The notes beneath the pieces were generated by a model. It was not told the origin of the DNA and did no database searches. It saw only the letters and a program-made list of their open reading frames with translations. Shown here piece after piece: positions 2,514-59,459 of a stretch of DNA of 64,000 nucleotides. Origin of the DNA: a virus (Duplodnaviria > Caudoviricetes); IMG/VR virus record IMGVR_UViG_3300001598_001791, positions 1 to 64,000 of that record; one strand, 5' to 3'. A program made the translations under genes and the position numbers. Positions within the stretch are counted from its first letter, which is position 1, and each line of letters opens with the position of its first letter.

Positions 2514-2804
2514 ATGTGTTTATTCATATATTTATTGAATATATTTGATTATTTATGCACAATGTTTTGAGTAAATAAATATGGTATTGAAATTGAAGCA
2601 AATCCTATTTCAAGATTTTTTATTCAAAATAATTTACTTGGATTTGTTAAGATAGTTATAGTTGGTATACTTCTTTATTATATAGAGAAGAAAAATAAAT
2701 TTAAGAAATTAAATATTTTTCTGTTAATTATTTATTTGATGTTAGCTGTATACCATATTTACTTATTAGTTATGACAGGATATTTTTTATGAAACAAGAA
2801 ATAA
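2514..2804 (+). CDS. small membrane protein, DUF5658-like (96 aa, code 4)
   Basis: GAGGA RBS; LNIFDYLCT...EANP motif plus hydrophobic segments; two in-frame TGA; absent from the code-11 ORF track. Confidence 0.6.
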
Positions 2805-3010
2805 AGAGAGAAAAGGCAGAAGACTGGGCTAAGGCAGTTAACTTTATCCCAAAGAAAGATGAAATTATTATTTATGATTGTGAAGATGGAACCAAGATCA
2901 AAATTGGTGACGGTGTTCACAAAGTAAATGAATTAGACTTTATTGATAATTATGTATCAATTGCTAATGTTAATAGAGTTGAGGACGAAGTAATTATTAT
3001 GGAGGATTAA
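2789..3010 (+). CDS. small protein resembling a phage fibre N-terminal (Mtd/hyaluronidase N-like) domain
   Basis: W...NFIP..EIIIYD...KIKIGDG...ELDF pattern. Confidence 0.55.
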   Translation: MKQEIKREKAEDWAKAVNFIPKKDEIIIYDCEDGTKIKIGDGVHKVNELDFIDNYVSIANVNRVEDEVIIMED

Positions 3011-3014
3011 TATT

Positions 3015-4793
3015 ATGTCTGAAGTAAGTAAGATAAATGTAAATGGTATTTCTCGGCCATTGAAGGATGCTGTTGCCCGTGAGATGATTGAGAACTTACC
3101 AAAACCAATGGTCTTTAAAGGAACTCTTGGTATAGGTGGTACCATCACTGAATTACCAGAGCCAACATTACAAACAATAGGACATACCTATTTAGTTATT
3201 ACTGAAGGTACTTATGCTGAAAAATATGCTCGTGTTGGAGATATGTTTGTTTGTGATGAAGCACCTGAGTGGGTATTAATTGTTGGTGGTACATCAGTTT
3301 CTGTTAGTAGAGATGGTACTTCAGCTAATAGTGTTAGGTATATTACTATCGATGGACAAGAGAGTAAACTAGATATTGACAGAAAAGACTTTGTTGGGTA
3401 TGTAAGTAATCTTACATCTTTAGCTGGAACAACTGAATTTATTGCTGTTAGTGGAAATAAAAATATTACTACCACCGCACAAACAGACGTTGCTTCATAT
3501 AGCACAGCTACTGTGTCAGATTCAGATTTGGTAGCTTCAAACATTAAAACAGGCGTAAATATTTTAGGTATAAATGGAACATATACTTCAGATGGCACTT
3601 TAGTGGCTAATGCTATTAGAAGTGGTTATACAGGATACTCTAAAGGGACTAAATATACAGGAACAATGGCTAATTATACTGGCTCATATCAAATAGTTCC
3701 TGGAACATCAACGACAACCTTACAAACAAGTGGTAAGTATGTTAATTCAAATATTTATTGCAATGGTGAATCTAATTTATTAGCTGGCAATATCAAAGCT
3801 GGTATTACTATCTTTGGTGTTGTTGGTACATATTCTGGTGGTGGACAAACTGAAATTAATCCAGTATTTAGTGGTTTTATTAGAACAGGTTCTCCACAAG
3901 AACAGCAAAGTGCTAGCCTTAGTTTTACAAACTCTGCTGGTTGGGCACAAGTAACTGATATAATTATAAAATTTTATAGTAGTATGTCAGCTTCTAACTT
4001 TTGCCAATATTTATTAAAGAAAGTTTCGTCAGCGTGGATAAAATATATTGAATCTGGTGATGCATCTGTTTCATCACAAAGTACGGTAATTGTAAACATT
4101 AATGGCACATTATTAACTATTGATGAATCAGCCTATAGTGATTATGGATGGGGATTACATAATTTCACTTTACCCTATACTGGATTTAGTGATTTACCAA
4201 CATTTAATCAATCTAGTGCTAATAAGGCTATTGAATTTACTGCTTCTGGATCAGGTACAACTACTGGAGCTAGTTCACTTTATGGTATTTCATTATCTGA
4301 AGTTAACGGGCCAGCTAATCCAAACTGGTCAAGTGTTATTATTTGTGATAATGGTTCAACTAGTTTTTCAACTACTTATACCTTATCTTATAACTCAGGC
4401 CCAAGTTCACTTCAGGGATATTATTGTGATGACTTAATTAGTGATTATTGTCCACAAGACGGGCCATATCAATCACGATTAAGATATTTAACTAATGCTA
4501 ATGATTACTCATCAATGAGTTCTATTGAACCATCAAATACATATATAGTGTACTCAAAAGGCCAAAATACTTATGTTTGTGTAGCTAGATATAATTTTGC
4601 TAGTGGTACAAATATTACTATCCAAAATGTATATTTAGATGGCGTTGCATTAACAGAAGAAACTATCATTACTGATAATGGCGAAGAACCTGGTTGGAAC
4701 GTTCCGGTTAGTGAAAATTTAAATTTAACTATTGAAACAACACAAAGTGAATATGAAACTTATGGCAACTGTATGTTTACAACAGCTGCTTAG
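3015..4793 (+). CDS. Thr/Ser/Gly-rich fibre-like virion protein (592 aa)
   Basis: Shares KP.VFKGTLG..GTIT.LP and YITIDG modules with genes 4830 and 14714; NIKTGVNILG/NIKAGITIFG repeats. Confidence 0.65.
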   Translation: MSEVSKINVNGISRPLKDAVAREMIENLPKPMVFKGTLGIGGTITELPEPTLQTIGHTYLVITEGTYAEKYARVGDMFVCDEAPEWVLIVGGTSVSVSRDGTSANSVRYITIDGQESKLDIDRKDFVGYVSNLTSLAGTTEFIAVSGNKNITTTAQTDVASYSTATVSDSDLVASNIKTGVNILGINGTYTSDGTLVANAIRSGYTGYSKGTKYTGTMANYTGSYQIVPGTSTTTLQTSGKYVNSNIYCNGESNLLAGNIKAGITIFGVVGTYSGGGQTEINPVFSGFIRTGSPQEQQSASLSFTNSAGWAQVTDIIIKFYSSMSASNFCQYLLKKVSSAWIKYIESGDASVSSQSTVIVNINGTLLTIDESAYSDYGWGLHNFTLPYTGFSDLPTFNQSSANKAIEFTASGSGTTTGASSLYGISLSEVNGPANPNWSSVIICDNGSTSFSTTYTLSYNSGPSSLQGYYCDDLISDYCPQDGPYQSRLRYLTNANDYSSMSSIEPSNTYIVYSKGQNTYVCVARYNFASGTNITIQNVYLDGVALTEETIITDNGEEPGWNVPVSENLNLTIETTQSEYETYGNCMFTTAA

Positions 4794-4829
4794 AAATTTA
4801 TTGTATGATATTATGGAGGATAAAAATAT

Positions 4830-6188
4830 ATGTCTGATGTAAGTAAGATAAATGTAAATGGTACTACCTATGACTTAAAAGATTCTACTGCTCGAGCTCA
4901 GATTGAGGCCTTACCGAAGCCAGTTGTATTTAAAGGCACATTAGGAACTACTGGTACTATTACTACATTACCAGAAGCTAGTGCTAGCACAATTGGTCAT
5001 ATGTATAAGGTTATTACTGCTGGAACATATGCTGGAAAAGAAGCTAAAGTTGGTGACTTATTTATTGGAACTGAGTTACCATCAGCTACTGAAACTTGGT
5101 TAATTAATGATACTCCAGCAGTTGCTACAGGTGTTACTACTTTTACAGTTAATTTTAATTCTAATAACACTGCTTATTCCCAAATGGAAATGACCAAGAT
5201 GACAATGCCTGGTCTTGGAACTGTTAGCACTATTACTTATGGTAGTGATACTGCTTATTCAAGTTCCCATTCACCTAATTGGTATAATAATGATTATAAA
5301 ACAATTACTTTAAAGACAGCTGCCAGTGGAGACTTATTAACTTGGTTAACTAACAATGCTTCAAAAGTTTTATACGATTGGGTATTAGTTCCATCTGGTG
5401 ATGAACCAAGTGGTACTGTTACAAATATTGCTACTGGATCTGGTTTAACTGGTGGACCTATTACAACTACTGGTACTATTAGTGTAGATTATACTGCAGT
5501 ACAAGAAAAATTAGTTTCTGGAACAAATATTAAAACAATTAATAATGAATCTATTTTAGGAAGTGGTAATATTACTGCTGGCTTAGAAATTCCTGAAGTA
5601 GTTATTACTCAAAGCCAAGTAACGTCAGTTGACCCATTAACAATTCAATTAACTGATGCGCAATATACTTTAATTAATAGTAGTGTCAGTAAATTTATTA
5701 AATTGAATGCTACTGATTTAGGCTCTGGCACAATGACATTTAACGTTGAAGATTGAGAAACACTTCTTTACTTAAGTTCTCATAATGGTGTTTGGGATGC
5801 CACCACATCAGTAGCCGCAGCACAACAAGAAAATTTATTTGTAGTTAACAAGACTACTAAAGTTGGTATTTATTCAACTGTATATAGCCAACCACAATTA
5901 ATTCCTGGTAACAATATTGATATTACCAATAATGTTATTAGCTGGGTAGCTCCAGTTACATCAATGACAACAACAATCACTGGTGATGGATCTACAAGTT
6001 TATTTACAATTGATCATTCATTTAATACAAGAGATTTAATTATCCAATTATATGAATTAACAAACTATGAAACTGTTGAAGCAACAGTTAAGAGAGCTAC
6101 AACAAGCACTATAACAGTAGAATTTAAAGATGCTCCAGCTGTTGGTTTAAACTTTAGAGTTTGTATTTATTCATTAAATAATTTATAG
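4830..6188 (+). CDS. fibre-like virion protein (452 aa, code 4)
   Basis: ORFs 4830-5756 and 5964-6188 share a frame and are separated only by TGA at 5754. Confidence 0.7.
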
Positions 6189-6207
6189 AGTTATAGGAGG
6201 CTAATAA

Positions 6208-9081
6208 ATGAAAAATTATGGCAAGATAACTGACAATAAAGATGTTACAACCAAAGAGTTTGTTGATGCTCAAGTTGGTACTAAACAAGATACTATTAGT
6301 GATTTATCAACAATCAGAAGTGGTGCTGCACTAGGTGCTACGGCGTTGCAACCAAATAGTGCAATTACAGCCGGAACAGCAACAAAAGTTACTTACGATG
6401 CTAAAGGTTTAATTACCAGTGGCACAACATTAGCTGCAAGTGATATTCCGAACTTAGATGCTGCAAAGATTACTAGTGGTACATTTGCTGACGCTAGAAT
6501 TGCTAGTGCATCTATTTGGAATGCTAAACAAGCTGCTATTACAGGTGCTGCTACTACTATTACTAGTTCAGATTTAACAGCTTCAAGGGCTTTAATTTCT
6601 AACGGAAGTGGAAAGGTTGCTGTATCTGATATTACTTCAACTGAGCTTAATTATTTAGATGGTGTTACTTCAAATATTCAAACACAATTAAATAATAAAG
6701 AAGCTGCTGATGCAACAATTTTGAAAAAAGCAAATGTTGTTGATAATGTTACTACAACTACAACAAATATTCCATTATCAGCAAATCAAGGTAAATTATT
6801 AAATGATAGAATTAACAATTTAGAATCAGTTGGTAGATTCTTATCAATTTGGAATTGTATTACTGGTAAACCAACATCAGATCCAACTACATTGCCTTAT
6901 GCTTATAAAACAGGTGACTATTATAGAGTTGGTGTAGTTGCTGCGACAGGTGGAACTAACTATAAACCAAGTGGCCAATCTTATACTGGGGCTGCTTCAA
7001 CAACACAAGAAACAGCTACAGTAGACATTGGTTATATTTATTACTATGATGGTTCAATCTGGACATTACAAGCTGGTTCACCTGAAGGTAAAGTACAAGA
7101 TGTTCAAGTTGATGATGTTTCTACTTTATCTGGTGGTATCGCTAAGATTACTTTAGGTAGTTTTGGTGTTACGGCTACTGCATCTGAATTAAATACCTTA
7201 GATGGAATCACGGCTACAACAACAGAACTTAACTATACAGATGGCGTTACCAGTAATATTCAAACACAAATAGATAATATTGGTAATGTTAGAATTGGTA
7301 CTACTACAAGTGGTCATGCCAATGGAGTTATTTTAAACGATTTAACTAACAATGTTGCTAGTGGAAACTATAGTATTGCTGAGGGGAATAGAACGACTGC
7401 TTCTGCTACCGGGGCTCATGCTGAAGGTTATTACACTATTGCCTCTGGTGCATACTCTCATGCAGAAGGTGGAAAGAATGGAGCATCATCCGAAGCTAGT
7501 GGTTACGCTTCTCACGTTGAAGGTATTTCTAATATAGCCTCAGGTGGTGCATCACATGCTGAAGGTATTTTTACTGTTGCTGGCAGTACTTATGCAACAC
7601 ATACTGAAGGTTATGGAACACAAGCATTATCGGATCTTCAACACGTAGAAGGTTCATATAATATTACAGATTCAAATTCAACTTATGTTCACATCATTGG
7701 TAATGGTGAAGATGATAATACAAGATCTAACGCTCATACAGTCGACTGGTCTGGTAATGCTTGGTATTCGGGAAATATCAAGGTTGGTGGAACAAGCTAT
7801 ACTGATGTTAATGCTAAACAATTAGCTACACAAGACTATGTAACAACAGCTGTTAGTGGAAAACAAGATACTTTAGTTAGTGGAACGAATATCAAAACGA
7901 TAAATAATACAACTATCTTGGGTAGCGGTGATATTTCTACTCCAGATACAAAGAATACAGCTGGTTCGACTGATACTTCATCTAAAATTTATTTAATAGG
8001 AGCTACAGAACAATCAGCTAATCCCCAAACATACTCAGATGATCAGGTATATGTTGAAAATGGTACTTTAAAAGCACCAATATTTAGCGGAACATTAACA
8101 GGTAATGCAACTAGTGCTACTACAGCAACTAAACTTAAATCAAATAGAACTATTGCTTTAGGAACTGGCGTTATAGGTACTGCCACGGCATTTGATGGTT
8201 CTTCAAATATAACTATTCCTGTTACTGAAGTAAAAGAGGGCTATTTAAGTTGGGGCGGTCAACATATAACTGGTAAAACATCTCCATTAGGTATGGCTAT
8301 TTCAAATGAACATAATGCTAATAGAATGGCTTATATAAATGGCGATGCTATAACAATGGAATATTCATCAGATGCCGGCTCTACTTGGACTGACTATGGA
8401 CACGGAGCAGCAAGTAAATCATGATTTTTTACATCTGGTTTAGACCTTCCTGTTGGGAGACCTTCTACTTCAACTGCTTATACGTTAGATTCAAGAACTA
8501 GAATTACAATTACAGCACAAAATGGTACAAATGGATATGTATATACTGATCCTAGAAAAATGTTATTACAAGTTTCAACCGCTTGTGGATTACAAGTGTT
8601 AATTGAAACACGTACTGGAGCCAATTATCAAAGCGAAGGATCATGAAGTACATTTGGAACATATGCAGTATCAGGGTGGAGCGGTTGGAATGATATTCCT
8701 CTTGTTTTAAGTACTTTAGGTGGAGCAACTAGTCAGCTAGCTAATATATGGCAATTAAGACTTACATTTAGTGTTACATCTGTTTCGTCATCTTCCTCAA
8801 CACATTGTAATGTTCGTGCGTGTCGTATTTATGGTACTAATCTTTGGACTAGTCCATCAACATTAGCAACTAATGGACATATGTATACAATTGATACTGC
8901 TCAAAATGTTACATTCCCTGCTGAGGTCAGAGATTCGTCTGGGTATAAGTTAGAAAATACGGGTAATAAAGTTACTTCTATTTCAAGTTCATCTACTGAT
9001 ACTCAATATCCAACGGCAAAAGCTGTGTATAATATAGTAGGAAATATTGAGGCTGCTTTAATAGCTATTAGAGGAGTATAA
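6208..9081 (+). CDS. tail fibre/adhesin with YadA-head-like SHAEG repeats (957 aa, code 4)
   Basis: Repeated (S/A)H(A/V/T)EG motifs; reading through two TGA joins 6208-8424 to 8881-9081 in frame. Confidence 0.75.
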
Positions 9082-11374: not shown

Positions 11375-12370
11375 ATGAAATCTTATTCATTTGAATATAA
11401 AGGTGTAGATGTTTATGTTAATTGTTCAAATGGTAAAGGAACTATTTCTAGTGATTACTGGGAAACAGGAACAAAACATTTATTAAAAGACTTTAAAGTT
11501 CCTGAATATACAACAAAGAAAAGAAACATTGCAGTTAATGGTGGATTATTCTACACATATGATAATAAATATTATGCTTGTGGAATTGAAAAAGTTAATG
11601 GACAAGTTCACCAAGACTGGGATACTGAATACGATGATGTGTGTGCTATTGGAATTAAATCTAACGGCACTCCAGTCATTGATACTCAAGCAAACATTAA
11701 GGCAAATTTAAGTACATATAAACACGCTGTTACGGGTGCATTTGGTTTAATGAAGAATGGTTCTAAATATTTAGGTAATTATAAAAAGTTAGGTAGTTAT
11801 ACTAAAATGTCAGGTAGAACATTAGTTGGCTGGAGTTCAACCACTAATAAATGAGTTATCATTTCATTTGAAGGTGAAACTGGAGAATCAGGATTAACTG
11901 GATCTCAATGTTATGACCTAATTCAATATATTAATTCTAACTACTCTTTAAAGATCACTGATTGTTTATGTATGGATGGCGGTGGAAGTGTTGGATTAAT
12001 TGTAAATGAAGTACAAAAAATAACAACTTCTAGAAAAATTAAAAATGCTATTATTATTTATGATGATAGTGACGATGAGGAAGAAGAGGAGGAATATGAA
12101 ATGGGAACATTAAAAATGAAATGCACGAAAGGTCAACAAGCGATTAGAGAAGAAATTGAATTTAAATATAATTCAACTAAAAAATGTTATCAACCTTGTG
12201 GAACTATTTTAGAAATTCTTCCTAAAGGAAATACTGAATGCATAATTACTGGATTCGTTGAAGGCTTACAAAAAGATGGTTATCAATGAGTAAAAGTTAA
12301 ACACGATGATGTTGAAGGTTATGCACAGTGGGACTCGATGTATTTCGAAGTTTATGAAATTAAGAAGTAG
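11375..12370 (+). CDS. phosphodiester glycosidase (NAGPA/DUF2233-like) with possible C-terminal SH3-like domain (331 aa, code 4)
   Basis: AVNGGLF, GRTLVG and MDGGGS motifs lie in one frame only if TGA at 11852 and 12287 are read through; ends at TAG 12368-12370. Confidence 0.65.
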
Positions 12371-13414: not shown

Positions 13415-14266
13415 ATGAAATTCACTAGGAGATATATAAAACCCACCAAGAAAGATCTATGCTATGTTTTGAGGTCTGATGGCGGATGAAATGATTGTGT
13501 AGTAGGTAAACCGACAGATAAGGAATGTAGATGTCTAAGTAATTGTGTTGGTTATGCTTCAGGTAGATTCAATGAAATTTATAATGAGTTAACTGATAAG
13601 ATCGGCTGTAATTTCCCTTACTTAAACTGTAATGCTGAAAACTTCATTGAAAGAGTAAATAAGAAGTATCCTTCTTTGATTATCTCCCAGACACCTAAGC
13701 CAGGTTCAATAATGGTTTGGGCAAAGGGTGAGGTTGGTGTAAGCGAAGATGGTGCTGGTCATGTTGCTATTGTAGAAGATATATTAGAAGTAAATTCAAC
13801 AGGAGAACCAGTGTCTATTAAAACTTCTGAGTCAAGCTATAATGGAGAAGCTTTTTTTAATAAAATAAGAAATAAAGGATCTGATGGCCGGTGGGGAATG
13901 TCATCAAAATATACTTTTAGAGGATTTATTTTGTGTCCAATCGAAGAAACTGATGAAATAGAATTACCTACTTCATTAAAGTCTAGAGATATCCTAAAAA
14001 ACCAAATATATGTTGGACCAATTAAATTGAGAATGCGTGATATGTCTTCCACTAAAGGTAATATGATAGGAATATGTGATAGATGTTCTTTCTATGATGT
14101 AATATCTGTTTGTAAAAAATCTGATTATACCTGGTATCAATTGTCTAGTAAAGTATACGTAGCTGGAGTTTCTGGTGTTTCGTATTATCCCTCAAAACAT
14201 AGTACGAAAAAACTTACTTCAATAACTACTTTATTTACTTCAATTAGAAATGCTTTAAAAAAATAA
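13415..14266 (+). CDS. CHAP-domain endolysin (283 aa, code 4)
   Basis: Catalytic NCVGYASGRF and AGHVAIVE motifs in one frame; in-frame TGA at 13487 precedes the catalytic Cys; possible C-terminal SH3-like domain. Confidence 0.8.
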
Positions 14267-17965: not shown

Positions 17966-18880
17966 ATGAATACAGAGTTATTTAGTAATTTATCAGATCA
18001 AGAAAAAGAATATGTACTTAAAATTTTAGATGGTATTTCAAAAAATGATAACTCAGAATTAACTAAACTGTTATATGAAGATTATAGAGAAATACCTGTA
18101 GACATAAATACTTTTTTACATGATCCTTATTATTTAGGAAGAGGTTTGATTGATGGTGAGGGGAGATTTACTTTATTTCCTTATTGAGAGGAATTATTAA
18201 AGAAAATATACCCAGACCCACTGAAACCTGCTATATGTAATACATTAGCTCTTACAGGAGCTATTGGTATTGGTAAATCAACTGAAGCAGTAATCATAGG
18301 TATTTATGAATTATATAGAATGATGTGTTTAAGAGACCCATCAGTTTATTATGGTATCATGAGTACTGATACAATTTCATTTGCAGTTATTAATATTACT
18401 TTAGAGGCATCTAAGGGTGTTGCTTGAGATAAATTTCAAAATCTGATTCAATCTTCAGGATGGTTTATGAATCATGGAAAAATGGCCGGTATAAATAAAC
18501 CTGAATGAGTTCCTGATACTCAATATAAAATTGATTTAATTTGTGGATCTCAGCCAAGACATTTTATTGGTAAAGCATTATATTGGTGTTTAGATGGTGA
18601 TACAGTTATAGCTACAACAGATGGCAATAAGAAGTTAAGTGAACTAACTAATAAAATAATACAAGTGTTTACTATTAACGAAAAAGGTGAAGTTGTTGTA
18701 AGTGAAGAGTGCACAGTAAAACCTACAGCTGTAGAAGATATAGAATATCAAATAGAACTAGATGATGGTTCAGTAATAAAATGTACACCTACACATAAAT
18801 TTATGCTAAAAGATGGTTCATATAAGGAAGCACAATTTTTAACTGAAGAAGATGAATTATATGATGTGGAGGTTTCTTAA
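17966..18880 (+). CDS. terL: terminase large subunit N-terminal part fused to N-intein (Int-N, 97 aa from Cys at 18587)
   Basis: Walker A TGAIGIGKS; three in-frame TGA (18185, 18425, 18506); then intein block A CLDGDTVIAT and block B CTPTHKFM; TAA stop. Confidence 0.9.
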
Positions 18881-19567
18881 ATGAAAGTTATTAAAGAACA
18901 AAAGCATTTTGGCTATATTTATAAACTTACAATGATTCCCACAGGTAAAATATACATAGGTAAAAGAGAAAAAGATAAAATTGATGTAGGTTATTATGGG
19001 TCAGGCAGAGATTGAAAGATTGATCTTAAAAAATATGGTAAAGAAAATGTTAAAGTTGAAATACTTGATTGAGCAGATTCAAGAGATGAATTAAGAGAAA
19101 AAGAAGTTTATTGAATTAAGGAGTATAATTCTCAAAATAAAGAAATTGGTTACAATGTTCATAAAGGTGGTGCTGGTGGAAATTCATTAGGTGATACTGA
19201 AGCTTGAGCAGAATTGCATAGAGGTGAGAAAAATGGTAGATATCATATGCCTGTCAGTCAAGAGACAAGAGATAAAATTGGTGTTGCAAACTCAGGTAAA
19301 ATAAGATCACAAGAAACAAAAGACAAAATTTCAGCTTCAACAAAAGGTGTTCCAAAACCAAATGGATTTGGTGATAAAATAAGTGCTGCAAGAAAAGGTG
19401 TTCCAAACACATGAGCATGAAAATCAGTTCAATGTATAGAAACAGGAAAGATATATAAAACAGTTCATGATGCATCAATTGATACAGGTGCAACAAATAT
19501 CGCAAGATCTTGCAAATTAGGTGTGACATCAGGTGGTTATCATTGGAGATATGTAAATGAAAATTAA
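18881..19567 (+). CDS. free-standing GIY-YIG homing endonuclease with NUMOD3/NUMOD1-like repeats (228 aa, code 4)
   Basis: GYIYKL...KIYIG, YYGSG, E..WIKEY and GYN motifs; SQETRDKI repeats; six in-frame TGA. Confidence 0.85.
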
Positions 19568-21071
19568 ATCAATTAGAAGAACTAAATTATCTTCTTTAAA
19601 ACAATACTATGATGTCATTAATGCTAATCCATATAATAATTTTTTAATTAAAACAAATAAAAGTTATGTTTGTTCTCATAATTGCTTTATGGATGAAGTG
19701 AGTTTTCAACCAAATCAAGACATTAATCGTCAGAAGGAGAAGGCTACAGAATTAGTATCTTCTGCAACTGCACGTATGCAATCACGTTTCATGAGAAATG
19801 ATGTTAATCCTACAATTCTTGTAATGGCATCATCAAAAAGAACTGAACAATCATTCTTAGAAACATGGATTGAAAACAAAAAGAAAAATGATAGTAAAAC
19901 TACTATTGTTATAGATGAACCTCAATGGATTATTAGAGCAGATAAACAGTCTGAAAGAACATTTAAAGTAGCAGTTGGTAATAAATTTCTTGTATCAGAA
20001 GTACTACCCCTAGACTTAACAGAAGATGAAATTGGCTATTATAGAGAAAAGGGGTATAAAATTATCGATGTTCCAATAGGATACTATGAAACATTTATAG
20101 ATAATATTGATATTGCTCTTACTGATGTTGCCGGTATTTCAACTACTAGCATCAGTGCCTATATTTCTGGGGCAAGGCTATCACAAACAAAAACTGAGAA
20201 AATTGAGAATCCTTTTGTTAAAGATATTATTGAAGTCGGTGATGGTAAAGATGACTTACAACAATATTCCGATTTCTTTAATTTAGATAAAGTAGACCCT
20301 AAGATGAAATCAAAACCCTTATTTATACATCTTGATATGTCTCTTACTGAAGATAAGACTGGACTGTGTGGTGTGTGAATAAAAGGTAAAAAACCACCAC
20401 AAGATGGTGTTCCAGAGAGCCGTGAATTATATTATCAACTGTCATTTGTTGTGTCCATAAAGGCACCAAAAGGGCATCAGGTTTCATTTGAGAAGACAAG
20501 AAATTTTATTTATTGGCTAAAAAAACAAGGTTTCAACATAAAGGGGATAACCTCAGATACTTATGCTAGGTCAGGTATAGAACAGGATCTAATTTCAAAA
20601 GGATACAATTATGGGATACTGTCAGTTGATAGGACTAAAGATCGTATCTGCGAACCATATGAATACCTTAAAAACACTATATATGAGCAAAGAATACTAT
20701 TACCTAGATATGGAGTTAATTTACTGACTGAAGAATTGGTTGGCCTGAAGCGAGATAATAATTCAGGAAAAATAGACCATGACCCGTCTGGAATAAATAG
20801 TAAAGATAGTTCTGACGCCTTGTGTGGAGCTTTATGGACTGCATCCCAACATGCTGAAGAGTTTGCATATGACTTCGGTGAAAATGCCCAAGCTTTATTA
20901 GATTTTAATAATGATCTTGGAATAACTGAATATAATGAAGAATTTGAAGAATCTATAAAATTAGCTAAAAAGAAATCTTTATATACACAGAATGAAGATT
21001 CTAATTATCTTGATTTTGGGTATGGTATCCCGATGGAATTACCCTTTGAAGATGGAATAATGCTATTTTAG
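19557..21071 (+). CDS. terL: C-intein (42 aa) fused to terminase large subunit C-terminal part (code 4)
   Basis: MKIKSIRR...YYDV...SHN followed by C-FMDE (Walker B); nuclease motif IHLDMS; read-through of TGA at 20376; SKDSSDA motif near the C-terminus. Confidence 0.9.
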
Positions 21072-21098: not shown

Positions 21099-23018
21099 AT
21101 GACACCAAATGAAATAAATGTAGAAAAGGAAGAAATCTTTCAAAACATAAATTATAAAAATAGAGTAATATCAGAGCCAAGCCCTAGTAAAATACCTGAT
21201 GTAGATACCAGGGGTAGTTTTTATGGATATCTCATGGACTCAGCTGAAACATCATCTCTTGATATTAATACTTTGAGCTCATTTACTTCAATTTCTAGAT
21301 CTCGTGATAGTGTTTATACACTATTAGATGTTATGGCAGAAGACCCTATGATATCATCGGCTATTAAAATTTATGCAGCAGATGTATGTGAACCAAATGA
21401 TCAAGGCCAAATAGTCTGGTGTAATTGTGATGATCCAAGAATCTTAAATGAAGTAAATAATTTATTAGATTCGTTAAATGTTAATAAAAATTCTGTAGAT
21501 TGGGTTACTTCATTAATTAAATATGGTGATATGTATTTGAGATTGTATAGACAGTCAGATTTTAGATTATTTGATCGATACATGGATGAATTCAGGAGAA
21601 ACCAAGATGACTATAAGAAAAAGAAACTTGATGAGAATTACATCCCACCTGAAAGAAATACTTTAGAAGAAGATCTCAAACTATTTGATTATTCTAAAAA
21701 TGACAGATATGCTGAGTATATGGAGTTGGTAAAAAATCCAGCACAAGTTTTTGATCTACAAAAATACGGCAAGTCATATGGTTACATTAAGACCACTACG
21801 GCACCAACTAACATCAGAAATGACTCTTTACAACCTAGATTAGAAACAAGATGGAATTATAGATATGATCAAGATGATGTAGAAATATATGAAGCAACAG
21901 AATTTGTTCATGCTTGTTTGACTGATAATTCATGTAGAACTGATGAGGAAATTTCATTAACAACTGGATCAAGTGGTACTACTGAAATTACTTTTAATGT
22001 AAGACGTGGACAATCTTTGTTATATAACTCTTTCAAAATTTGGCGCGAACTTACTTTATTAGAAAACGCTGTTTTATTAAATAGAATCACCCAATCATCA
22101 CTTATTAGATGTGTAAACGTTGAAGTACCTGATATGGATCAAAGTGAAGCTAAAAACATTTTAAGGAGAGTCAAGGGTTTATTTGAGCAAAAGTCGGCCT
22201 TGAATCTTGGAAATAATATGCAAGATTATACAAATGCTGGCCCTATTCAAAATACAATTTATATTCCTACTCACAATGGAATTGGAAATATTTCTGTTAC
22301 AAGTGTTGGCGGTGATGTTCAAGTAGGAGATCTTACTGATTTAGATTATTGGAAAAATAAATTATCTGGATCATTAGGTATCCCGAAGCAATACTTAGGT
22401 GATACTTCCGATTCAACTGGTTTCAATGGTGGTAGTTCTTTAAGTATTATTTCAAGTAGATATGCCAAGACGGTAAAGTCAATTCAAAATATCTATTTAC
22501 AATCTATTACAGATGCAGTTAATCTTATTTTATTAGATAAGGGATTGCGTAATTATATAAATAAATTTACATTAAGAATGCAAGAACCTACTACACAAGA
22601 AGAAAAGGATAGAAGAGATAATCTTTCAACTCAATTAAATTCTATTAGAGAAATAATGGGGTTAGTTGAAGACATTGAAAATAGAAAGATTAAGCTAGAA
22701 ATTCTTAAGTCATTGTTATCTAGTGCCTTAAACAATGAAGATGTTGTACAATTAATTCAAGAAGAGATTGACTCAATTTCTGAAACTACTAATTCTACTA
22801 GAGATGAATTAGGCGACAGTGACTTTGATGATATTAATTTTGAACCTAGTGAATCTGAAGGACCATCTCATATGGGAAATAGTGAACCTTCATCTCCTGT
22901 ATCTTCTGCAGGTGAAAATGAAACACCTATTGAAACGGCAGAAGCCCCAGCTGCCGGCGGAGATGATTTCTTAGAAACTTTTGAAGAAATGGGAGTTTCT
23001 TATAGAAACGTCTTATAG
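21099..23018 (+). CDS. portal protein (T4 gp20-like)
   Basis: Follows terminase; LRLY, RITQSS.IR, DYWKNKL..SLGIP and S.RYAK.V..IQ motifs. Confidence 0.8.
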   Translation: MTPNEINVEKEEIFQNINYKNRVISEPSPSKIPDVDTRGSFYGYLMDSAETSSLDINTLSSFTSISRSRDSVYTLLDVMAEDPMISSAIKIYAADVCEPNDQGQIVWCNCDDPRILNEVNNLLDSLNVNKNSVDWVTSLIKYGDMYLRLYRQSDFRLFDRYMDEFRRNQDDYKKKKLDENYIPPERNTLEEDLKLFDYSKNDRYAEYMELVKNPAQVFDLQKYGKSYGYIKTTTAPTNIRNDSLQPRLETRWNYRYDQDDVEIYEATEFVHACLTDNSCRTDEEISLTTGSSGTTEITFNVRRGQSLLYNSFKIWRELTLLENAVLLNRITQSSLIRCVNVEVPDMDQSEAKNILRRVKGLFEQKSALNLGNNMQDYTNAGPIQNTIYIPTHNGIGNISVTSVGGDVQVGDLTDLDYWKNKLSGSLGIPKQYLGDTSDSTGFNGGSSLSIISSRYAKTVKSIQNIYLQSITDAVNLILLDKGLRNYINKFTLRMQEPTTQEEKDRRDNLSTQLNSIREIMGLVEDIENRKIKLEILKSLLSSALNNEDVVQLIQEEIDSISETTNSTRDELGDSDFDDINFEPSESEGPSHMGNSEPSSPVSSAGENETPIETAEAPAAGGDDFLETFEEMGVSYRNVL

Positions 23019-47481: not shown

Positions 47482-48059
47482 TGATAGTTACTAAAGCTTA
47501 TATAACAGAGATGCCAAAAGATGGCGATAATATCTTTAAGGTTAATGTACCCTTGATGTCAGATAACACTTTAAATGATGCTATATTTGATGCGTTATTG
47601 TGTACTGACCCTATTAGTTATAGTGGTTATTCTGTTGGTGACCCAGTCTTTGTGACATTTGAAGATGAAAAATATAATATTGCTATAATTTTAGGTAAAT
47701 TATTTGTTTCTATACCAACAGAGTCTAAGTCATATACTATTACAAATGAATTGAGAGTAACTGGACAAGCAAACTTACCACCAAGTACAAAATTTGGAGA
47801 GTATACCGTTCAAGACTTCACTAATTTATATAATGCTACACTTAATTCAGGTGGAGGATCGCTAGATAAAGAAGGATTAGAAAAGTACTTAAAAGAATAT
47901 GTTAAGTGAGAAAGCACTGAAGAAATAATAGAAGAAGAACCAGTAGAGGTTTTTGCGAATAAAATTTTATGTATGTCAGGTGAAACCTACTCTCTGATAA
48001 CACCAGTAGATAATACATTATACTTCTTAACAAGTGTACCTACAGAGGAAACTCAATAA
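47481..48059 (+). CDS. probable baseplate spike (gp5/gpV-like OB fold; 192 aa, code 4)
   Basis: FKV.VP, VGD.VFV.FE....IILG pattern; TAATG overlap with the next gene. Confidence 0.55.
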
Positions 48060-49105
48060 TGCCAATTAAGTTAAAAATAGAAGATATTTTAAGAATTAGA
48101 TTAAAAGATAAACAAATTTGGAGAGTATATAACAAAGATCAACTTATCTGAGGATATTATCTAGTTAATTATAACTTTGCTGAGGGAATTAACGACCCAG
48201 ATAATCCTAAAGATTATGTTTGAGGTATTAAAGATATTACTTTATTACCAGCTGAATGAGAAGAAGCTGATGACTTTATGGGTTGATATGATAGTATAAC
48301 TCTTGAACGAGTTATTGATAAAATAAGCAAAGATGATCACCTTGATTTTAACTTATATGCAAAGTGAGTTAAACATAAGTTGCAATACAGAGGATGGTAT
48401 ACTTGGACAGAGCCATTTACTCCAACTTGGACTATTAGAACAGCCAGGCCTACAGTAACCAGACCAGATGTGTTCCCTTATACAAATGATATTTATTGGG
48501 GGTGGAGTCCACATACTTGTGCCTGGTATTGTTATGGTAGAACTGCCGAAGCAGCAGTCAATAGTGGTATAAGTAGTGAATCCAATGCGTTTTTTGCACC
48601 AAATGGAAACCCACCATGGGATGGTAAGTCGGGTGGTCACTATGGAGATGCCAAAGACTGGATTAACAGTGTATATGCAGTAACAGACTCTACAGTTGGT
48701 GTTCAACCTGGAAATGTTGTTATTTGTACCTATACTGGAGAAACATCTGGATATAAACCAGGTCACGTTTTATTTATTGAAAGAGTTGAGTCAACTAGAA
48801 TAACTACAACTTGTACTGCATATGGTTTCCCCTATTACTGAGATCCTGGTGCCTTGAATATGGGTCAAAATTTATATAATATTCCAGGTGATAGTGGTTA
48901 CTTTACTGTTATTGGTTATATAGATAATCCTCAAATGGGAGGCACTGTTATCAAAGAAGCTGAACAAACTGAATGGAGTGATAACCCAAACCCACCCAAG
49001 GGAAGTTGAAAAGAAGGTTACCCTGAAACAAGAGGACTTGAAAGTGTGTATGATTATGAAAGTGAATCATGGGGAGAATGGAGGGAGATAAATGAGATCA
49101 ATTAA
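48059..49105 (+). CDS. virion-associated CHAP-like peptidoglycan hydrolase (348 aa, code 4)
   Basis: TCAWYCYGR and PGHVLFIE motifs; seven in-frame TGA. Confidence 0.7.
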
Positions 49106-49499: not shown

Positions 49500-52400
49500 A
49501 TGAAAGATCCTAATATCTCAGCAATGAGTTATACCTCAAAAGACTTTGGTCAAATTTATAAAGAGGCGCTTGATCTGGCTAAAGAATTAACAAACAGATG
49601 AGATCCTTCACAATCAAATGAAAGTGACCCTGGAGTTGTTCTTTTAAAAGAAGGTGCTTTTTTAACAGACCACAATAACTATAATATTGATAAAAATGTT
49701 TTAGAAAACTTTTTACCTAGTGCTACACAAGATAGATCTGTCCGTAATATTATGGAGATGAATGGCTATACACCAAGATATTATGTATCAGCTATGGGTA
49801 AAGTATCATTCAAATGGGAAAATCCAAATGCCACAAAAGGTGATTACTCAGGGACTAGCTTTACTATACCTAGATTTACCTTAGTAGTATCTGACGCTGA
49901 TGGAACTGTTTCATATACTCAAGCTGATGATCTAGCTATCTCGATAGATTATGAAAACCCATCTTCTGCCTCATTAGTATCATCATGTAACTTCATTGAA
50001 GGTACTTTACAAACATTAACGATAAATAACTCTGATACTGTTTTCTTGGAAAATATCGACGACAACAATAGAGTTTATTTACCTGAAACAATGGTTGCCC
50101 AAAATGGTGTTTATATCAGATACTCAAATGATTCTGAGCATAAAGAATATGGATTCTGGGAAAGAAATAATTATTTATCTACACAACCAGCCGGTTCTAG
50201 ATTATATAAAATTGATTATGACTCATTTAAAGGATTACCTTATATTGAATTCCCTTCAGATATTTCTAACATTATTTTAAGTGGGTTATTAGTTCAATAC
50301 ATTTCAACATCAGGTGAAGCCGGTAATGTTAGTGCTAACACTTTAGTTAATATTGTTACACCGACAGAATTTTATGATAGAGACGGATATTCTAGGTCAA
50401 CTGAGTACTTAACTTTAAATAACGTTTCAGCAATTACTAATGGCAAAGACCCTGAAACAATTGAAGAGATGTACCAATCGTTTAAAAAAGTTGTTGGTAC
50501 TTTCGATACTTTAGTTTCATGTAATGATTATAAAAATAAAATTAATTTATTGGATGATGGTGTCAATTATCTTGTATCAAATAACTATGTTACGGATAGA
50601 AGAACTGATTACAATAAATCAGCTAATGTAGTTACTTTTGATAGTAAAGGTGTTTATCAGGCTAATTTAAGTATTAAACCATGTTCACTAAGACTTAAAG
50701 GATCAGCTGATGAGTGTACTTCCATAGGTGATATGTACTATGATTCTGTCTCTAAAAAATTAAAAGTTAAAATTGGAGTCACTGAAGATAATTTTGAAAG
50801 TTGCGATACAATTAATTTAAATGACTTCTCTTTATTGACAGAGGCAATGACTCCATATGATTTAGTTGTTTACGCTTTAAAGAATTTTTCTCTTTCAGAT
50901 TATAATAGATCATATCCTTATAGGGCTTTACAAAATTCTTTTACTCCTATTTCATCTTCAGTTAGAAATGATTTAGAGAATTTAAATTATGGATATCTAA
51001 GTGATAGTAAATGTATTTGCCATACATTTAACGATCCTAAATCAGGTGAAGTTTACTGTTTTAAAAATTATGTACCATTAAATGTTACTATTATACCATA
51101 TAACAAAATTACTGCTGATGAAAAGTCTAATATTATAAATAATATTTATATTGCTTTGTCAGAAAACTTTAACCCTAGAAATATTGAATTCGGTGAAGAT
51201 TTAGATATTACAGCTGCAAAAGAAGTTATTCTAAATAGTGATAGCAGAATTAAAGATTGTAATATTGATTATAAATATGAAACCTATGCTATGAACAGTA
51301 TTTCTGGTAGTGATGGTATTTATGAAGAGAAAAAACTAAATGGTACTCTCACCGGATCTTCATCAGTATTACTACTTGATTTAGTTACTAAAAATATTTT
51401 AGCTGGTAGAGTCTGTTTATTTGAATTTGATGAAGACTTTACTTATGACTATGAGCAATCTGATTGTAAATTTATCGATAATGCTACATCATTTAAAACA
51501 GCACTCCCATTACCACTTAAACAGTCAGCCGTAAAAAGTGTAACAACTGCGAAAACAACTACAACAACTTCAGTCATTGATGGTTCTTCTAGTGGTTATA
51601 CAATTTACTATAATTTTAATGCACCTAACTTAGATTCACCTGAAAGTAGAGTAAATGTAACAAAGGGAACTTCATATACACTACAAACAGATGAAGATGG
51701 AGTATATGTTGACTCCTTTAGACTAGAAATTATTCAAGGCACTGGCACTGAAAGTAAAGTTATTAGTGATGTTACCTATAAAGCTTCACTTGACACTACA
51801 TATAGTTTCAGTTTAGATGATGCAAATATCATTAACACTGCTGATGATACATTAACTTCGATAACTGGTAAATTAACTATTGTTACTATTAGGGTTGATG
51901 CATCAGATGATGAAGGAACAGAGAACCTTAATTATACTTTAGATAAGAATGAATATATTCAAATCCTTTATCCAAATTACTACTCAACTGATACATATGG
52001 AATCTATGTTAATTATAGATATCAATCAACTGATCCAGACAGTATAATCAGAGCTAACACTGAACATACATTGAGATCTGATGAAAAACTAGTATTAGTT
52101 TATACAAATAATGGTGTTACTGTAACTGATGTACCTGTTACTGGTACTATCATTAGATCAAGTTTTGATATCAATCAAACTGATAAATTATCGGCAACAG
52201 GAACCAAAAAGAGTTGAACTGATTTAGATGGTACTTACCATGATAATGAAAAATTCATGTCATTGTCATCAAATCAAACTATTTCAAAACGTTCTCAATT
52301 TAGTACTATTCTAAATGGTACTAATATTAACTGTTATTGGATGGTTAATAATTCAACAAATACTCTATTCTCAAATAAAGGACTGAGTGAAGAAAGAGTT

Positions 52401-53807: not shown

Positions 53808-53808
53808 T

Positions 53809-54453: not shown

Positions 54454-54455
54454 TT

Positions 54456-54989: not shown

Positions 54990-55008
54990 GGAGAGGAAAA
55001 AATATTTT

Positions 55009-55806
55009 ATGAGTTATATATCATCTTCAAACGTTAGTGTGTTTCCTTCAACATATAGAAACCAATACCAGACAAGCAAGCTAACAAGTGAAAATAATTT
55101 TGTAAATATAATTAATGCCATTATCAATAGACCTAACGGTAGCTATGTAGTATCACATGAAAATAATGTATTACGATTAGTTATTCATGGTTATTATTTC
55201 GAAGTAACCAATTGGACAAAATCTCCAAATTTAGTTGCATCAATTAAAGTTGAAAATAACGGTTTCAGTTTGGTTAGACATGATAATTTATCAATTGATA
55301 ATTTAGATCAAAATTCAATTTTTTATGGCTTAGATATTTCAGAGGGTAATCCTGTTAATGGCTCTGATGAAAATTATACAACTTATTCATTACAAATAAC
55401 AGACTCATCTAATAATATTATTAACCAAGAAAGACTTACTACAGATGTTATCGAATGAGGTAAGTCAGGAAAAACGTTATCTACAAGATTAGATGAGCTT
55501 CAAGAGCAATTAGTTGTGGGAGATAATTCAGGTCTTACTTTATCATCTGACAAGAAAACGCTTGCTCTCAATCTTAAATATAAAAATAGCCTAGATAACT
55601 TAGGTAACAAAGGTGGTTCTGGTAATAAATTAATCTACTTCGATAACGATGGCGTTGTCAAAGATTCAACTTCTACAATAGGAACAGATCATCAAATTGT
55701 TTATGTGAATAATGGAACATTAACAGCAGGAGCTAAAATAACTATTAGTAATTCTAATCCATCTGGTGGAAATAACGGTGACATCTGGCTTAAATATGGA
55801 GGCTAG
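55009..55806 (+). CDS. fibre-associated protein (265 aa, code 4)
   Basis: One TGA; C-terminal ISNSNPSGGNNGDIWLKY fibre motif. Confidence 0.6.
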
Positions 55807-55811
55807 ATAGT

Positions 55812-57623
55812 ATGTCAATAAATGTTGTTATACATACATACGATACAGAATTATCAAGAAGTGGTAATGTTACTGGGTATCATTATGACTCTAGTGGAAC
55901 TTCAATTAAAACAATCAATATTCCATCAGGAACTATTAAAAAAACATATCAATGTAATTATGGAGATGTTTTATATTCATTAAAATATTCTCATGTGGGT
56001 TATACTATAGACCATTGATATGGAGAAATATCAACAGGATCTTCAGCTAGATCCACAGTATATTTACCAACAGAAGGTATAGTAAATATTGATATAACCT
56101 CTGATATGAAGGCTCTAGAGCTATGGCCAGAAGTTAATGCTAATACCTATACAGTAACTGCATCTGCTAGTGGAAGCGGTGGTTCTGTAAAACCTACTTC
56201 AACAACAGTAGAGTACAAAAAAACTGCTACATTTACAGCTAATGTAGATTCTGGATATGTAGTTGATTGTTGGTATTTTAATAATGCTCCTAAAACTTCG
56301 GCCGGAACTAGCTCAACGTATACTACTCCAGAAATAACAGAAAATAGTACTGTTAAAGTTGTATTTGCGAAAACCCAATTGAAGTATTATTTTTATGATA
56401 ACGGCCAAGAAGTAAAATCAGGTGATGGATACCTGGGTGAAACGATTAACTTTTCTAAGTATAAAATATCTAAAGATAATACTGTAACACAGAGAACTGG
56501 GTATAAGATGTCTTTTTATGATTATCAAGGTGGAAGTAAAATTGGTGAGTCTGACATATCTGGTGGACAAATTATAACATCATATACTTTGTCAGGTTGA
56601 AATAACGGGTTTGGTAATTTTTTTGAGGCAGATGGAATTGAAACTATAAAACCACTATCAGGAAATCGAGAATTCTATGCACAATGAACAGAGTCTTCTA
56701 CATCTACTAATAACAAATTACAATCAATACTAGATTCACCTTCTAGATTAGGGTATACTTTTAATTTCTGGAAGTGAAATGGTGAACAGCTATCAAAAGG
56801 ACAAGAGATTACCGAAGATGGTAATCAAAATGCTTATGGTGATTGGACTCCACGTATATATAATGTATCATTTGCACTTGGATCTTCTGATACAACAATT
56901 GGAAAGTTACCAGAACCAACTTGAGGAACTGGATCAAAACCGTCTACTCAAACAAAAACATTCGGTACTGCTATAGGGAAACCTGAAGTTATACCTGAAA
57001 GATTTGGTTATACTTTTGTTGGTTGGCATATTGATAAAAATGTATCACCAACAGATTCTAGTATAATTACTGGTACTACTATTGATGATAGATTCTTTAC
57101 CTCAAATTCAACTACTACTGTAACATTATATACTATTTGGAAACCAAAAGAATTAACAGGTAGAAAAAATTATTACTATAACGGTGTCTCTTATACTGAA
57201 GACTTCTCCTACACTATTGAAAGTGTTAATTCTAGAGGTGAAAGAATTTATGATGTAGGATTGCCGGATAAGGGATCTACCGACGGTGAGTGGGTTTTTG
57301 CTGGATGAGTAAAAGATAAACCTTCTAGTTGAACAGATAAAAAGGGAAGATATAGAAATCTTATCGAAGTAGGAAGTGAGCCTAAATTACCTTATGAAAT
57401 TAAGGTAATCACTATCACTGACTGGGACAGTAAAGACACAGAACAATTTTATGGCATCTGGTCTTCAAGTGGTAAATATGTTAAAATAAATGGTGAATGA
57501 GTTCAAGTTCCGGTAGCATATGTAAACGTTAATGGTGAATGGAAATTAATGTATGATTCAGATGGTTGTTCATTCTATGTTAATGTTAATGGAAACTGAA
57601 AACCTGAAGCAGGTGGAAATTAA
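55812..57623 (+). CDS. tail fibre/receptor-binding protein with InlB-B-like repeats (603 aa, code 4)
   Basis: Nine in-frame TGA; P.R.GYTF..W repeats; terminal YV(K/N)(I/V)NG.W triplet. Confidence 0.7.
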
Positions 57624-57647
57624 GAGAGGATTAATCCTCTCTTTTTA
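57623..57647 (+). terminator. late operon terminator
   Basis: AAGAGAGGA-TTAA-TCCTCTCTT followed by T tract. Confidence 0.8.
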
Positions 57648-57769
57648 ATAGTTTACTTTTTATAAAAAAGTGATGCAAGATATAAGGTATGCTTTAGCTT
57701 AGCCTTGTGAATTGCATCTATTTTGTAAAAATTAAAATTTTTGTAAAAATCTAATGCTAAATTTAATAT

Positions 57770-57937
57770 ATGGAAAAATACAAAGCAACAGACAGAATTG
57801 TGGCGTCAATAAAGCCAGACAACCCTCTAATGAAACAACTAATTAGGTATTTAGAGGAAAATGACTACTCTATGACAAGTGTAGTTAAAAAAGCTTTGAA
57901 GATGTACCTTGACAGTGAGGAGAATAAACAAAAATAA
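57770..57937 (+). CDS. small ribbon-helix-helix-like protein (55 aa)
   Basis: Short strand-helix-helix pattern, S.TSVVKKAL..YL; not in the ORF track. Confidence 0.45.
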   Translation: MEKYKATDRIVASIKPDNPLMKQLIRYLEENDYSMTSVVKKALKMYLDSEENKQK

Positions 57938-58439
57938 TTTTAAGTCAAGAAATCATTCAAAGTTTCTATTGCAATTTCATGTGATTTTAGTTTGTAAATA
58001 CAGATTAAAATTATTGGATAGTAATGTTTCAATCGAAATAAAAAAATTATCTGATGAAATTGTGCAAAAGCATGGTTGTTCTATTAAGTATGTTGAGTCT
58101 GATTTAGATCATATTCACTACTTAATAGAAACATTGCCAACAACAAATCTTTCAAATCTAGTAAGAGTACTTAAACAATACACTACATATCACATTTGAA
58201 AAAGATTTGATTTTTCAAACTATTTATGAAAAGAACATACTTTTTGAACTGATGGCTATTTTATTAGCTCAATAGGTAATGTGTCAGAAATGACAATAAG
58301 AGAGTATATAGAAAACCAAGGGAGAAATCATGGTCAAAAAACAAAGCATACAAATTTAAACTTGAACCAACTAAAGATCAAGCTATTTTGATCAATAAAA
58401 CTTTTGGTTGTGTTCGCTTTATTTACAATAAAATGCTAG
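57909..58439 (+). CDS. tnpA: IS200-type Y1 transposase (code 4)
   Basis: FHVILVCKYR, HUH motif DHIH, KEHTF(TGA)TDGYF..SIG, catalytic Tyr in IREYIENQ; C-terminus extended by an extra A near 58340. Confidence 0.85.
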
Positions 58440-59459
58440 CTGACAAAAAAAGAAGCTTGAGAAAAAGATAAAATAAATTTAAAAGTTTCTCCAGCACAAT
58501 ATAAAGAAGAATTTGAATGGCTGTCTGAAGTAGATAGTCATGCACTTGGTAATGCTCAATTAGATTTGAATGCCGCATATTCTAATTTTTTCAGAGGACT
58601 CAAAAAGAAACAAAATATTGGATTCCCCAAATTTAAGTCAAAGAAATTTTCGAAAAGAAGTTATACAACTAATATAGCGAATAAAGACTCAACATCAATA
58701 AGGCTTGAAGATGATCATTTCTTAGTTCTTCCTAAGCTAGGTAGAGTAAGATTTAGAAAATCTAGGGATGTTGTTGGTAAAATAAAATCAGCTACAATTT
58801 TTCAAAATGCAGTTGGAAAATACTTTGTAAGTATCTTAGTCGAATACGAATGAGAAAAACCAAATTATCAAATAAACTTAGAAAATTCAATTGGTCTAGA
58901 TTATTCATCTCCTGATTTCTATGTAGATAACTTTGGAAACTCTCCTGAAAAGATTAAATTCTTTAGAGAGTATGAAGATCAGTTAGCTAAAGAACAAAGA
59001 AAATTAGCAAACATGAAATTAAACTCAAACAATTATCAAAAGCAAAGAAAGAAAGTTGCAAAAGTATATGAGAAGATAGCCAATTCTCGTTTAGATTTTT
59101 GTCATAAACTTTCTACACAACTTGCTAACCAATATGATATTGTTTGTGTTGAAGATATAAATTTAAGAGCTATGTCTCAATGTCTTACTTTAGGCAAAGC
59201 AACTATGGACAATGTGTTTGGAATGTTTAGATCTTTTCTACAGTACAAACTAGAAGATAGAGGTAAAGAATTTGTAAAGATAGACAAATGGACTCCAACA
59301 TCTACGGTATGTTCAGTTTGTGGAACGTATCATAAAGATATAGTCTCTAATCTCTCTGTTAGAGAATGGACATGTCCAGATTGTGGGACTATCCACAACA
59401 GAGATATCAACGCTGCTGAAAATATTAGATTAGCTGGAATTAGTTTACTCACAACATAA
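58330..59459 (+). pseudogene. tnpB: TnpB RNA-guided nuclease gene with two +1 frameshifts in A-runs
   Basis: KAYKFKLEP and GCVRFIYN N-terminus; RuvC IGLD, VEDIN and RDINAA; CSVC/CPDC Zn finger; frame changes at 58336-58341 and 58445-58451; two TGA. Confidence 0.8.

Follow-up and report, generated by a model that had tools for sequence, protein, structure and literature searches.

UGA as a probable tryptophan codon in the structural, lysis and mobile-element genes of a myovirus with a T4-like portal

The stretch of DNA analysed here, which we call the window, corresponds to positions 1-64,000 of a 78,431-base IMG/VR record (IMGVR_UViG_3300001598_001791; contig G000) and belongs to a myovirus of roughly the 140-kb class, with a T4-like portal, a tail sheath and CHAP peptidoglycan hydrolases. 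Many of its genes contain in-frame TGA codons, which raises the question of how TGA is read in this phage, and of whether that reading is a property of the host or is imposed by the phage itself. A first-pass annotation had proposed that TGA is decoded as tryptophan across the window, under genetic code 4. Alignments with homologues support UGA as a tryptophan codon in the structural, lysis, homing-endonuclease and transposase genes; the DNA-replication genes nearly lack it, and a transfer RNA (tRNA) with anticodon UCA is carried by the same genome. The contig has a G+C content of about 31%, with almost all genes on the plus strand; it is 47% complete according to CheckV and has no terminal repeats. 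It is compared below with the related phage genomes G001, G002, G003, G005 and G006.

Reading TGA as a sense codon raised the coverage of the plus strand by open reading frames (ORFs) of at least 200 amino acids from 57.6% to 75.5%, while the same treatment of TAG reached just 60.5%. The coding fraction obtained by gene calling rose in parallel, from 0.785 to 0.909. In-frame TGA is present in 41 of the 85 plus-strand ORFs of the contig, with a total of 86 TGA versus 206 TGG codons. Between positions 2514 and 59459, 34 predicted genes, a count that takes in a few doubtful small ORFs from an intron-rich region, hold 79 in-frame TGA and 137 TGG codons; this agrees with the earlier estimate that about 30 genes need TGA to be read through. 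The 82 called genes of the contig end at TAA (49) or TAG (33) and never at TGA, so that the proposal that no gene requires TGA as its stop was also borne out, with a single ambiguous site described below. The GIY-YIG protein of this contig is already present in a protein database with all of the 228 residues expected under code 4. Under code 11, annotation loses or fragments a fifth of the coding sequence of the phage and truncates the terminase, tail, lysis and transposase genes alike.

Approximately 55 of the TGA codons are firmly internal. TGA is over-represented in the outer tenths of the ORFs (17 of 86 in the first tenth and 14 of 86 in the last), and some of these terminal codons may reflect N-terminal extensions called in error, or may truly stop translation. 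The ambiguous site lies at the end of a small gene:

2514-2804, plus strand: small membrane protein whose two helices are hydrophobic, perhaps a holin; codons 19 and 93 are TGA

2789-2792, plus strand: ATGA, in which TGA codon 93 of the preceding gene overlaps the ATG of the gene at 2789-3010

This overlap is the sole site at which TGA could plausibly be a stop.

In order to assign an amino acid to TGA, codons were aligned with those of homologous genes. A portal search yielded the syntenic relative G001 (IMG/VR 3300011008_000021; 100.8 kb), whose proteins are 30–53% identical to those of the study phage. G001 uses the standard code, since TGA read-through gains nothing there and TGA ends 24 of its 103 genes. 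At 18 TGA positions of the window that could be aligned to G001, the relative carries TGG in eight cases, TTT in three, TAT in one and other codons in six, with no glycine. The recoded relatives G002 and G003 have TGA or TGG at 15 of 29 and at 5 of 10 aligned TGA sites, respectively. When the three relatives are pooled, the 41 aligned codons that are not TGA specify Trp 13 times, Phe six times, Tyr twice and Cys once, and neither Ser nor Gly occurs. The BLOSUM62 sum over these 41 codons is 94 for Trp, with Tyr next best at 24, and is negative for Gly, Cys and Ser. Individual sites illustrate the pattern:

18185-18187, plus strand: TGA in the N-terminal piece of the terminase, in FPY-TGA-EE, versus TGG (YPYWEE) in G001

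20376-20378, plus strand: TGA in the C-terminal piece of the terminase, in GV-TGA-IKG, versus TGG (GVWILG) in G001; the alignment extends over 397 amino acids with 52% identity

27598-27600, plus strand: TGA in an intron-associated endonuclease-like gene, in P-TGA-NKGL, versus PWNKGL in a G001 paralogue

49599-49601, plus strand: TGA codon 34 of a 1435-amino-acid tail or baseplate protein, in NR-TGA-DPSQ, versus RWDPSM in G001

57498-57599, plus strand: ends of a repeated motif in a fibre-like protein, with TGA at 57498, TGG at 57540 and TGA at 57597

The fibre repeat, which serves as an internal control, is exactly as the first-pass annotation had described it. Among the tryptophan motifs quoted there, FPY-TGA-EE (18185), P-TGA-NKGL (27598), F-TGA-TDGY (58245) and R-TGA-DPSQSNESDPG (49599) were recovered; SH-TGA-KFKR does not occur in any frame of the plus strand.

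More distant homologues give the same picture. TGA 113 of the transposase TnpA is aligned to Trp in three of three solved transposase structures (PDB chains), and TGA codons 97, 107 and 113 of this protein correspond to TGG in 17–18 of 18 viral homologues. The column of TGA 78 of the GIY-YIG protein (19112-19114, plus strand) contains Trp in 62, Tyr in 22 and Phe in 11 of 114 homologues, and TGA 209 of the intron-associated endonuclease-like gene is aligned to Trp in three paralogues. If TGA is counted as Trp, the Trp content per 100 amino acids is 1.24 in the structural block and 1.17 in the replication block. The alignments thus support UGA as a tryptophan codon in the structural, lysis, homing-endonuclease and transposase genes, as the first-pass annotation had proposed.

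The same proposal does not hold across the window, which consists of two blocks of genes:

2514-59459, plus strand: structural, lysis, homing-endonuclease and transposase genes

59593 onward in the window, continuing to 73565 of the contig, plus strand: DNA-replication genes

From position 59593 onward we identified genes for a SNF2 helicase, a DnaB-like helicase, a primase, PolA, thymidylate synthase, a sliding clamp and a PD-(D/E)XK nuclease. This block (59593-73565) contains a single TGA versus 50 TGG codons, compared to 79 versus 137 in the first block (Fisher p = 4.4e-8), and none of its genes stops at TGA. Out-of-frame TGA occurs at similar density in both blocks (30 and 25 per kb), which indicates that mutational supply does not explain the partition. 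G002 and G003 are partitioned alike, and many of their structural genes are nearly all TGA (for example, 16 TGA versus 1 TGG). Recoding is therefore not uniform, but limited to structural, lysis and mobile-element genes.

TGA and TAG trade places as stop codons between the two sister phages. G001 ends its genes at TAA (77), TGA (24) and, rarely, TAG (2), as opposed to 49 TAA, 33 TAG and no TGA in the study phage. Within a set of 26 late-gene orthologues, TGA ends eight genes in G001; in G000, TAG ends nine and TGA none. The nucleotide after the codon was also compared. U after UGA is a strong termination context. In G000, T follows 4 of 52 interior sense TGA codons and 40 of 169 TGG codons (p = 0.01), and it follows 36 of 82 true stops. 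The low frequency of U after sense TGA fits, and suggests, competition with release factor 2 (RF2).

No tRNA was detected on the 78-kb contig itself with ARAGORN or Rfam. An exact-protein look-up of the last gene of the contig led to the Logan contig SRR1221442_28678, which matches positions 74935-78431 at 100% over 3,497 bases and adds 11.5 kb past the end; this extension is collinear with positions 7386-82 of G001. No extension was recovered at the 5' end. The following features lie on the added sequence:

L162:4014-5136, 1.0–1.6 kb past the contig end: cluster of tRNA-Ser(UGA), tRNA-Thr(AGU) and tRNA(UCA)

L162:5039-5136, approximately 1.5 kb past the contig end: 98-nucleotide tRNA with anticodon UCA

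The first-pass annotation, which had suggested looking for a tRNA-Trp(UCA) in the rest of the genome, could not have seen it, since it lies past the contig end. Around the cluster lie genes without TGA that encode a metallophosphatase, a clamp loader and SbcCD-type proteins. At the collinear position G001 has no such cluster; its tRNAs lie at 90–100 kb and include none with anticodon UCA. The recoded relative G003 carries a homologous tRNA(UCA) of 96 nucleotides, while the standard-code genomes G005 and G006 carry 21–22 tRNAs, including an ordinary 76-nucleotide tRNA-Trp(CCA), and no tRNA with anticodon UCA.

The anticodon arm of the tRNA(UCA) is that of tRNA-Trp except for C34U, and the molecule has the pair A1-U72 and the discriminator G73; all three are identity marks of the Trp type. 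In the ARAGORN fold, the acceptor/T branch is 7/5 and the variable arm is long. Its best match in Rfam is tRNA-Sec (RF01852), with 36.8 bits versus a gathering cut-off of 47; the sub-threshold score and the 7/5 rather than 8/5 fold argue against a tRNA-Sec identity. SerRS, the seryl-tRNA synthetase, makes use of a long variable arm and of G73. Because of these SerRS-type features and the match to tRNA-Sec, we base charging with Trp on the codon alignments and not on the tRNA. In E. coli extract, 13 of 13 phage tRNA(UCA) inserted Trp (PMC12636597).

Other proteins that could effect a code change were also searched for. Neither release factor 1 (RF1; PF00472), which the first-pass annotation had also suggested looking for, nor a tryptophanyl- or tyrosyl-tRNA synthetase (TrpRS/TyrRS; PF00579) was found in G000, G001, G002, G003, G005 or G006. 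A weak PCRF match inside the portal gene (E = 0.007) was dismissed as spurious.

The variable arm of the tRNA(UCA) forms a hairpin with the loop GUCCAA. We scanned IMG/VR with the 15-nucleotide anticodon arm; all counts that follow are among the matches listed. At least 59 tRNA(UCA) share the anticodon arm, and at least 34 of these 59 (26 unique sequences) are 93–100 nucleotides long and carry UCCAA in the variable arm. Since UCCAA was the selection criterion for this group, its invariance there is not an independent result; the independent comparison is provided by the ten other long forms, which lack UCCAA and comprise nine of the tRNA-Sec type and one (L271) that is Trp-like. Short forms account for 15 of the matches. 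Among the 26 unique sequences, UCCAA falls within a predicted hairpin loop in 24, a seven-nucleotide loop of the form N-U-CCA-A-N is present in 20, and the exact CUCCAAA of the tRNA-Trp anticodon loop is present in 12; the stems of these variable arms have 19 different sequences. The ordinary tRNA-Trp(CCA) of the same loci measure 74–77 nucleotides in 13 of 13 cases. An alignment places the anticodon loop of the ordinary phage tRNA-Trp, together with its UUAU variable loop, on the variable arm of the suppressors, which looks like a duplicated anticodon stem-loop.

The host TrpRS depends on the CCA anticodon. It is quite possible, and we propose, that the tRNA has two anticodon-like arms with separate roles, UCA reading the codon and the U-CCA-A hairpin of the variable arm acting as a handle for charging by the host TrpRS. 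Such a handle would explain recoding without a phage TrpRS in this family of phages. The tRNA(UCA) may in that case be a natural suppressor with a spare wild-type anticodon hairpin; if the hairpin is read by TrpRS, it would represent a new solution to the tRNA-identity problem and a ready-made design for engineered UGA suppressors. In the literature searched, no variable arm with a CCA loop is described for tRNA-Trp(UCA), though one may still have been published.

With regard to the host, the CHAP peptidoglycan hydrolases argue for a cell wall. The evidence for wall hydrolysis consists of two CHAP domains and a NAGPA glycosidase, and the nearest cultured relatives of the portal belong to phages that infect Streptococcus, Listeria and Bacillus (27–31% identity). 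A walled host with the standard code is favoured by the wall hydrolases, the Bacillota-phage portals, the phage's own tRNA(UCA), the avoidance of TGA in early genes and the low frequency of U after TGA; it is most likely a member of the Bacillota. Viral contigs contain TnpA relatives of no more than 62% identity, which indicate no host.

Taken together, the alignment of TGA to Trp, the partitioned use of TGA, the absence of TGA stops and the presence of a tRNA(UCA) on the same genome make it quite probable, in our judgement, that the phage imposes a gene-class-specific switch of TGA to Trp in a standard-code host through its own tRNA(UCA); the genetic code of this host, the timing of expression and the charging enzyme we infer. 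In such a scheme, early genes would be readable by the untouched host machinery; indeed, the early/replication block, which is home to the tRNA(UCA), avoids TGA both as sense codon and as stop. The suppressor tRNA would then build up, charged by the host TrpRS, which would have to perform this task since neither TrpRS nor RF1 was found in G000 or its five relatives. Only afterwards would the TGA-containing late genes be fully translated, and recoding could thus serve to time or lock the expression of late and mobile-element genes. This phage would then exemplify early genes that the host can read and late and selfish genes locked behind a reassigned stop, and its standard-code sister would allow the steps to be read: TGA stops replaced by TAG, TGG converted to TGA in late genes, and a UCA tRNA acquired, either replacing tRNA-Trp(CCA) or in addition to it.

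Several observations weigh against a phage-imposed switch. The partition is incomplete: TGA is missing from a number of structural genes, including those for the portal and the prohead protease, and the SNF2 helicase of G002 carries five TGA codons. The low frequency of U after sense TGA does not recur in the more heavily recoded G002 and G003, and we treat this signal as weak. The long variable arm and G73 of the tRNA(UCA), with tRNA-Sec as best Rfam match, do not speak for Trp charging, and the missing part of the 47% complete contig may contain RF1, TrpRS or an inhibitor of RF2. Finally, the insertion sequence (IS) element gives no host signal, its TnpB homologues in species genomes being at most 46% identical and spread over many phyla, from Erysipelotrichaceae to methanogens.

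The explanation that survives best after the phage-imposed switch is a host that itself uses genetic code 4, of Mollicutes type or from another lineage, whose code the phage mirrors; the uneven distribution of TGA would then reflect recent acquisition or constraint on replication genes. TGA is indeed never a stop on the contig, RF1 and TrpRS were not found in G000 or its five relatives, the IS200 TnpA spells all of its Trp as TGA, and the G+C content of about 31% is low enough to suit this view. We nevertheless regard it as unlikely. The phage has its own tRNA(UCA), where standard-code relatives have tRNA-Trp(CCA), and the replication block keeps 50 TGG to one TGA despite AT pressure and equal out-of-frame density. 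Close syntenic relatives commonly stop at TGA, and the low U after sense TGA suggests that RF2 is present to compete. To our knowledge, code 4 in bacteria is confined to wall-less Mollicutes and to insect endosymbionts, and the CHAP and NAGPA wall hydrolases speak against a wall-less host. The label "genetic code 4" of the first-pass annotation is supported as to the meaning of the codon, and is probably the wrong frame if taken as a property of the organism.

A second possibility concerns the tRNA rather than the host: if SerRS charged a Sec-like or class-II-like tRNA(UCA), or if this were converted to Sec or Cys, UGA would be a codon for Ser, Sec or Cys. The long variable arm, G73 and the 36.8-bit match to tRNA-Sec point in this direction, and precedents exist in allo-tRNAs and selC*-type tRNA-Cys(UCA) (PMC5389517). 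This reading is very improbable when the codons themselves are considered, with no Ser and a single Cys at the 41 TGA positions and with TGA and TGG swapping among relatives. The score below the tRNA-Sec cut-off, the 7/5 rather than 8/5 fold, the A1-U72 pair and the tRNA-Trp-type anticodon arm also disagree with it, as does the insertion of Trp in vitro by 13 of 13 phage tRNA(UCA) (PMC12636597); moreover, 86 scattered TGA codons could hardly each own a selenocysteine insertion sequence (SECIS) element.

Glycine, the meaning of TGA under code 25 in Absconditabacteria and Gracilibacteria phages (10.1101/2022.11.22.517103), would be compatible with the low G+C content and the lack of TGA stops, but we give it almost no credence: Gly is absent from the 41 aligned non-TGA codons, its BLOSUM sum is negative, the columns concerned in TnpA, the GIY-YIG endonuclease and terminase are conserved for Trp, and Gly appears as a minor residue in just one variable column. 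Pseudogenisation, assembly errors or occasional programmed read-through have nothing in their favour except the bare presence of stop codons, and are scarcely credible given that TGA accounts for each of the 86 in-frame stops, with neither TAA nor TAG among them, that read-through gives collinear full-length homologues, that an independent assembly is identical in sequence and that relatives have TGA at the same sites.

The phage-imposed switch favoured here matches the phage-driven code switch known from "Agate"-type phages, the subject of a study by Borges et al. that reportedly appeared in Nature Microbiology in 2022. These authors describe TGA-recoded gut phages of approximately 127 kb that have lost TGA stops and have close standard-code relatives, with suppressor tRNAs detected in 35% of code-4 genomes and a preference for TGA in intron endonucleases (10.1101/2021.08.26.457843). 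As in the phage studied here, in-frame TGA in "Agate" phages occurs in structural and lysis genes, and the replication machinery keeps to the standard code. Both also share the loss of TGA stops, a suppressor tRNA(UCA), TGA-preferring homing endonucleases, standard-code relatives, a genome size class and a low G+C content, a likeness in described features. The cases differ in that the study contig is a 47% fragment without a tRNA on the contig itself, and in that its TGA stops have apparently been replaced by TAG, which makes up 40% of stops here versus 2 of 103 in G001. The suppressor tRNA here has a CCA-loop variable arm, which Borges et al. do not describe.

The mixed-code phages identified with Mgcod (10.1101/2022.06.29.495998) similarly have genomes in which one block can be read in the standard code and another requires opal reassignment. 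Most of them are podoviruses of the crAss-like type that infect Bacteroidota, whereas the present phage is a myovirus with a T4-like portal whose cultured kin infect Bacillota. In Mycoplasma and Spiroplasma, UGA is likewise read as Trp by a tRNA with anticodon UCA; their code change is, however, cell-wide, affects all genes and goes together with the absence of RF2, in contrast to the split of TGA by gene class, the phage-borne tRNA and the cell-wall hydrolases seen here.

The main remaining genes and elements of the window are as follows:

11375-12370: NAGPA-type glycosidase

13415-14266: CHAP peptidoglycan hydrolase

17966-18880 and 19557-21071, plus strand: terminase, in two pieces

18881-19567, plus strand: GIY-YIG homing endonuclease (PHROG 314, E = 6e-42), located between the terminase pieces; 6 TGA, 1 TGG

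21099-23018, plus strand: T4-like portal (Pfam PF07230, E = 8e-36), the anchor for finding relatives; 0 TGA

23594-25852: prohead protease

38656-39981: tail sheath

48059-49105: CHAP peptidoglycan hydrolase

57909-59459, plus strand: IS200/IS605 element

57909-58439, plus strand: IS200-type TnpA (Pfam Y1_Tnp, E = 2e-31); 4 TGA, 0 TGG

Several genes for fibre-like proteins are also present. The terminase region, which is split in the study phage, corresponds to a single ORF of 1072 amino acids in the standard-code G001 (L001:6673-9891), and an intein-like segment (Pfam Intein_splicing, E = 7e-5) forms the end of the first terminase ORF. Five group I introns score above the Rfam gathering threshold (25987-26262, 26515-26782, 28871-29152, 29203-29474 and 30040-30312, plus strand); they occupy the site expected for the major capsid gene and are interleaved with TGA-using endonuclease-like ORFs such as that at 27574-28293. 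In the IS element, TnpA and TnpB share one frame, with TnpB opening immediately behind the stop codon of TnpA, and TnpB is without the first ~45–87 residues when compared with ISDra2 TnpB, depending on the start chosen. A blastn comparison of positions 59593-64000 with GenBank phages gave no match. Within the replication block, DNA polymerase A is encoded by two ORFs approximately 690 bases apart, at positions 67583-69226 and 69913-70779 of the contig (L161:3583-5226 and 5913-6779).

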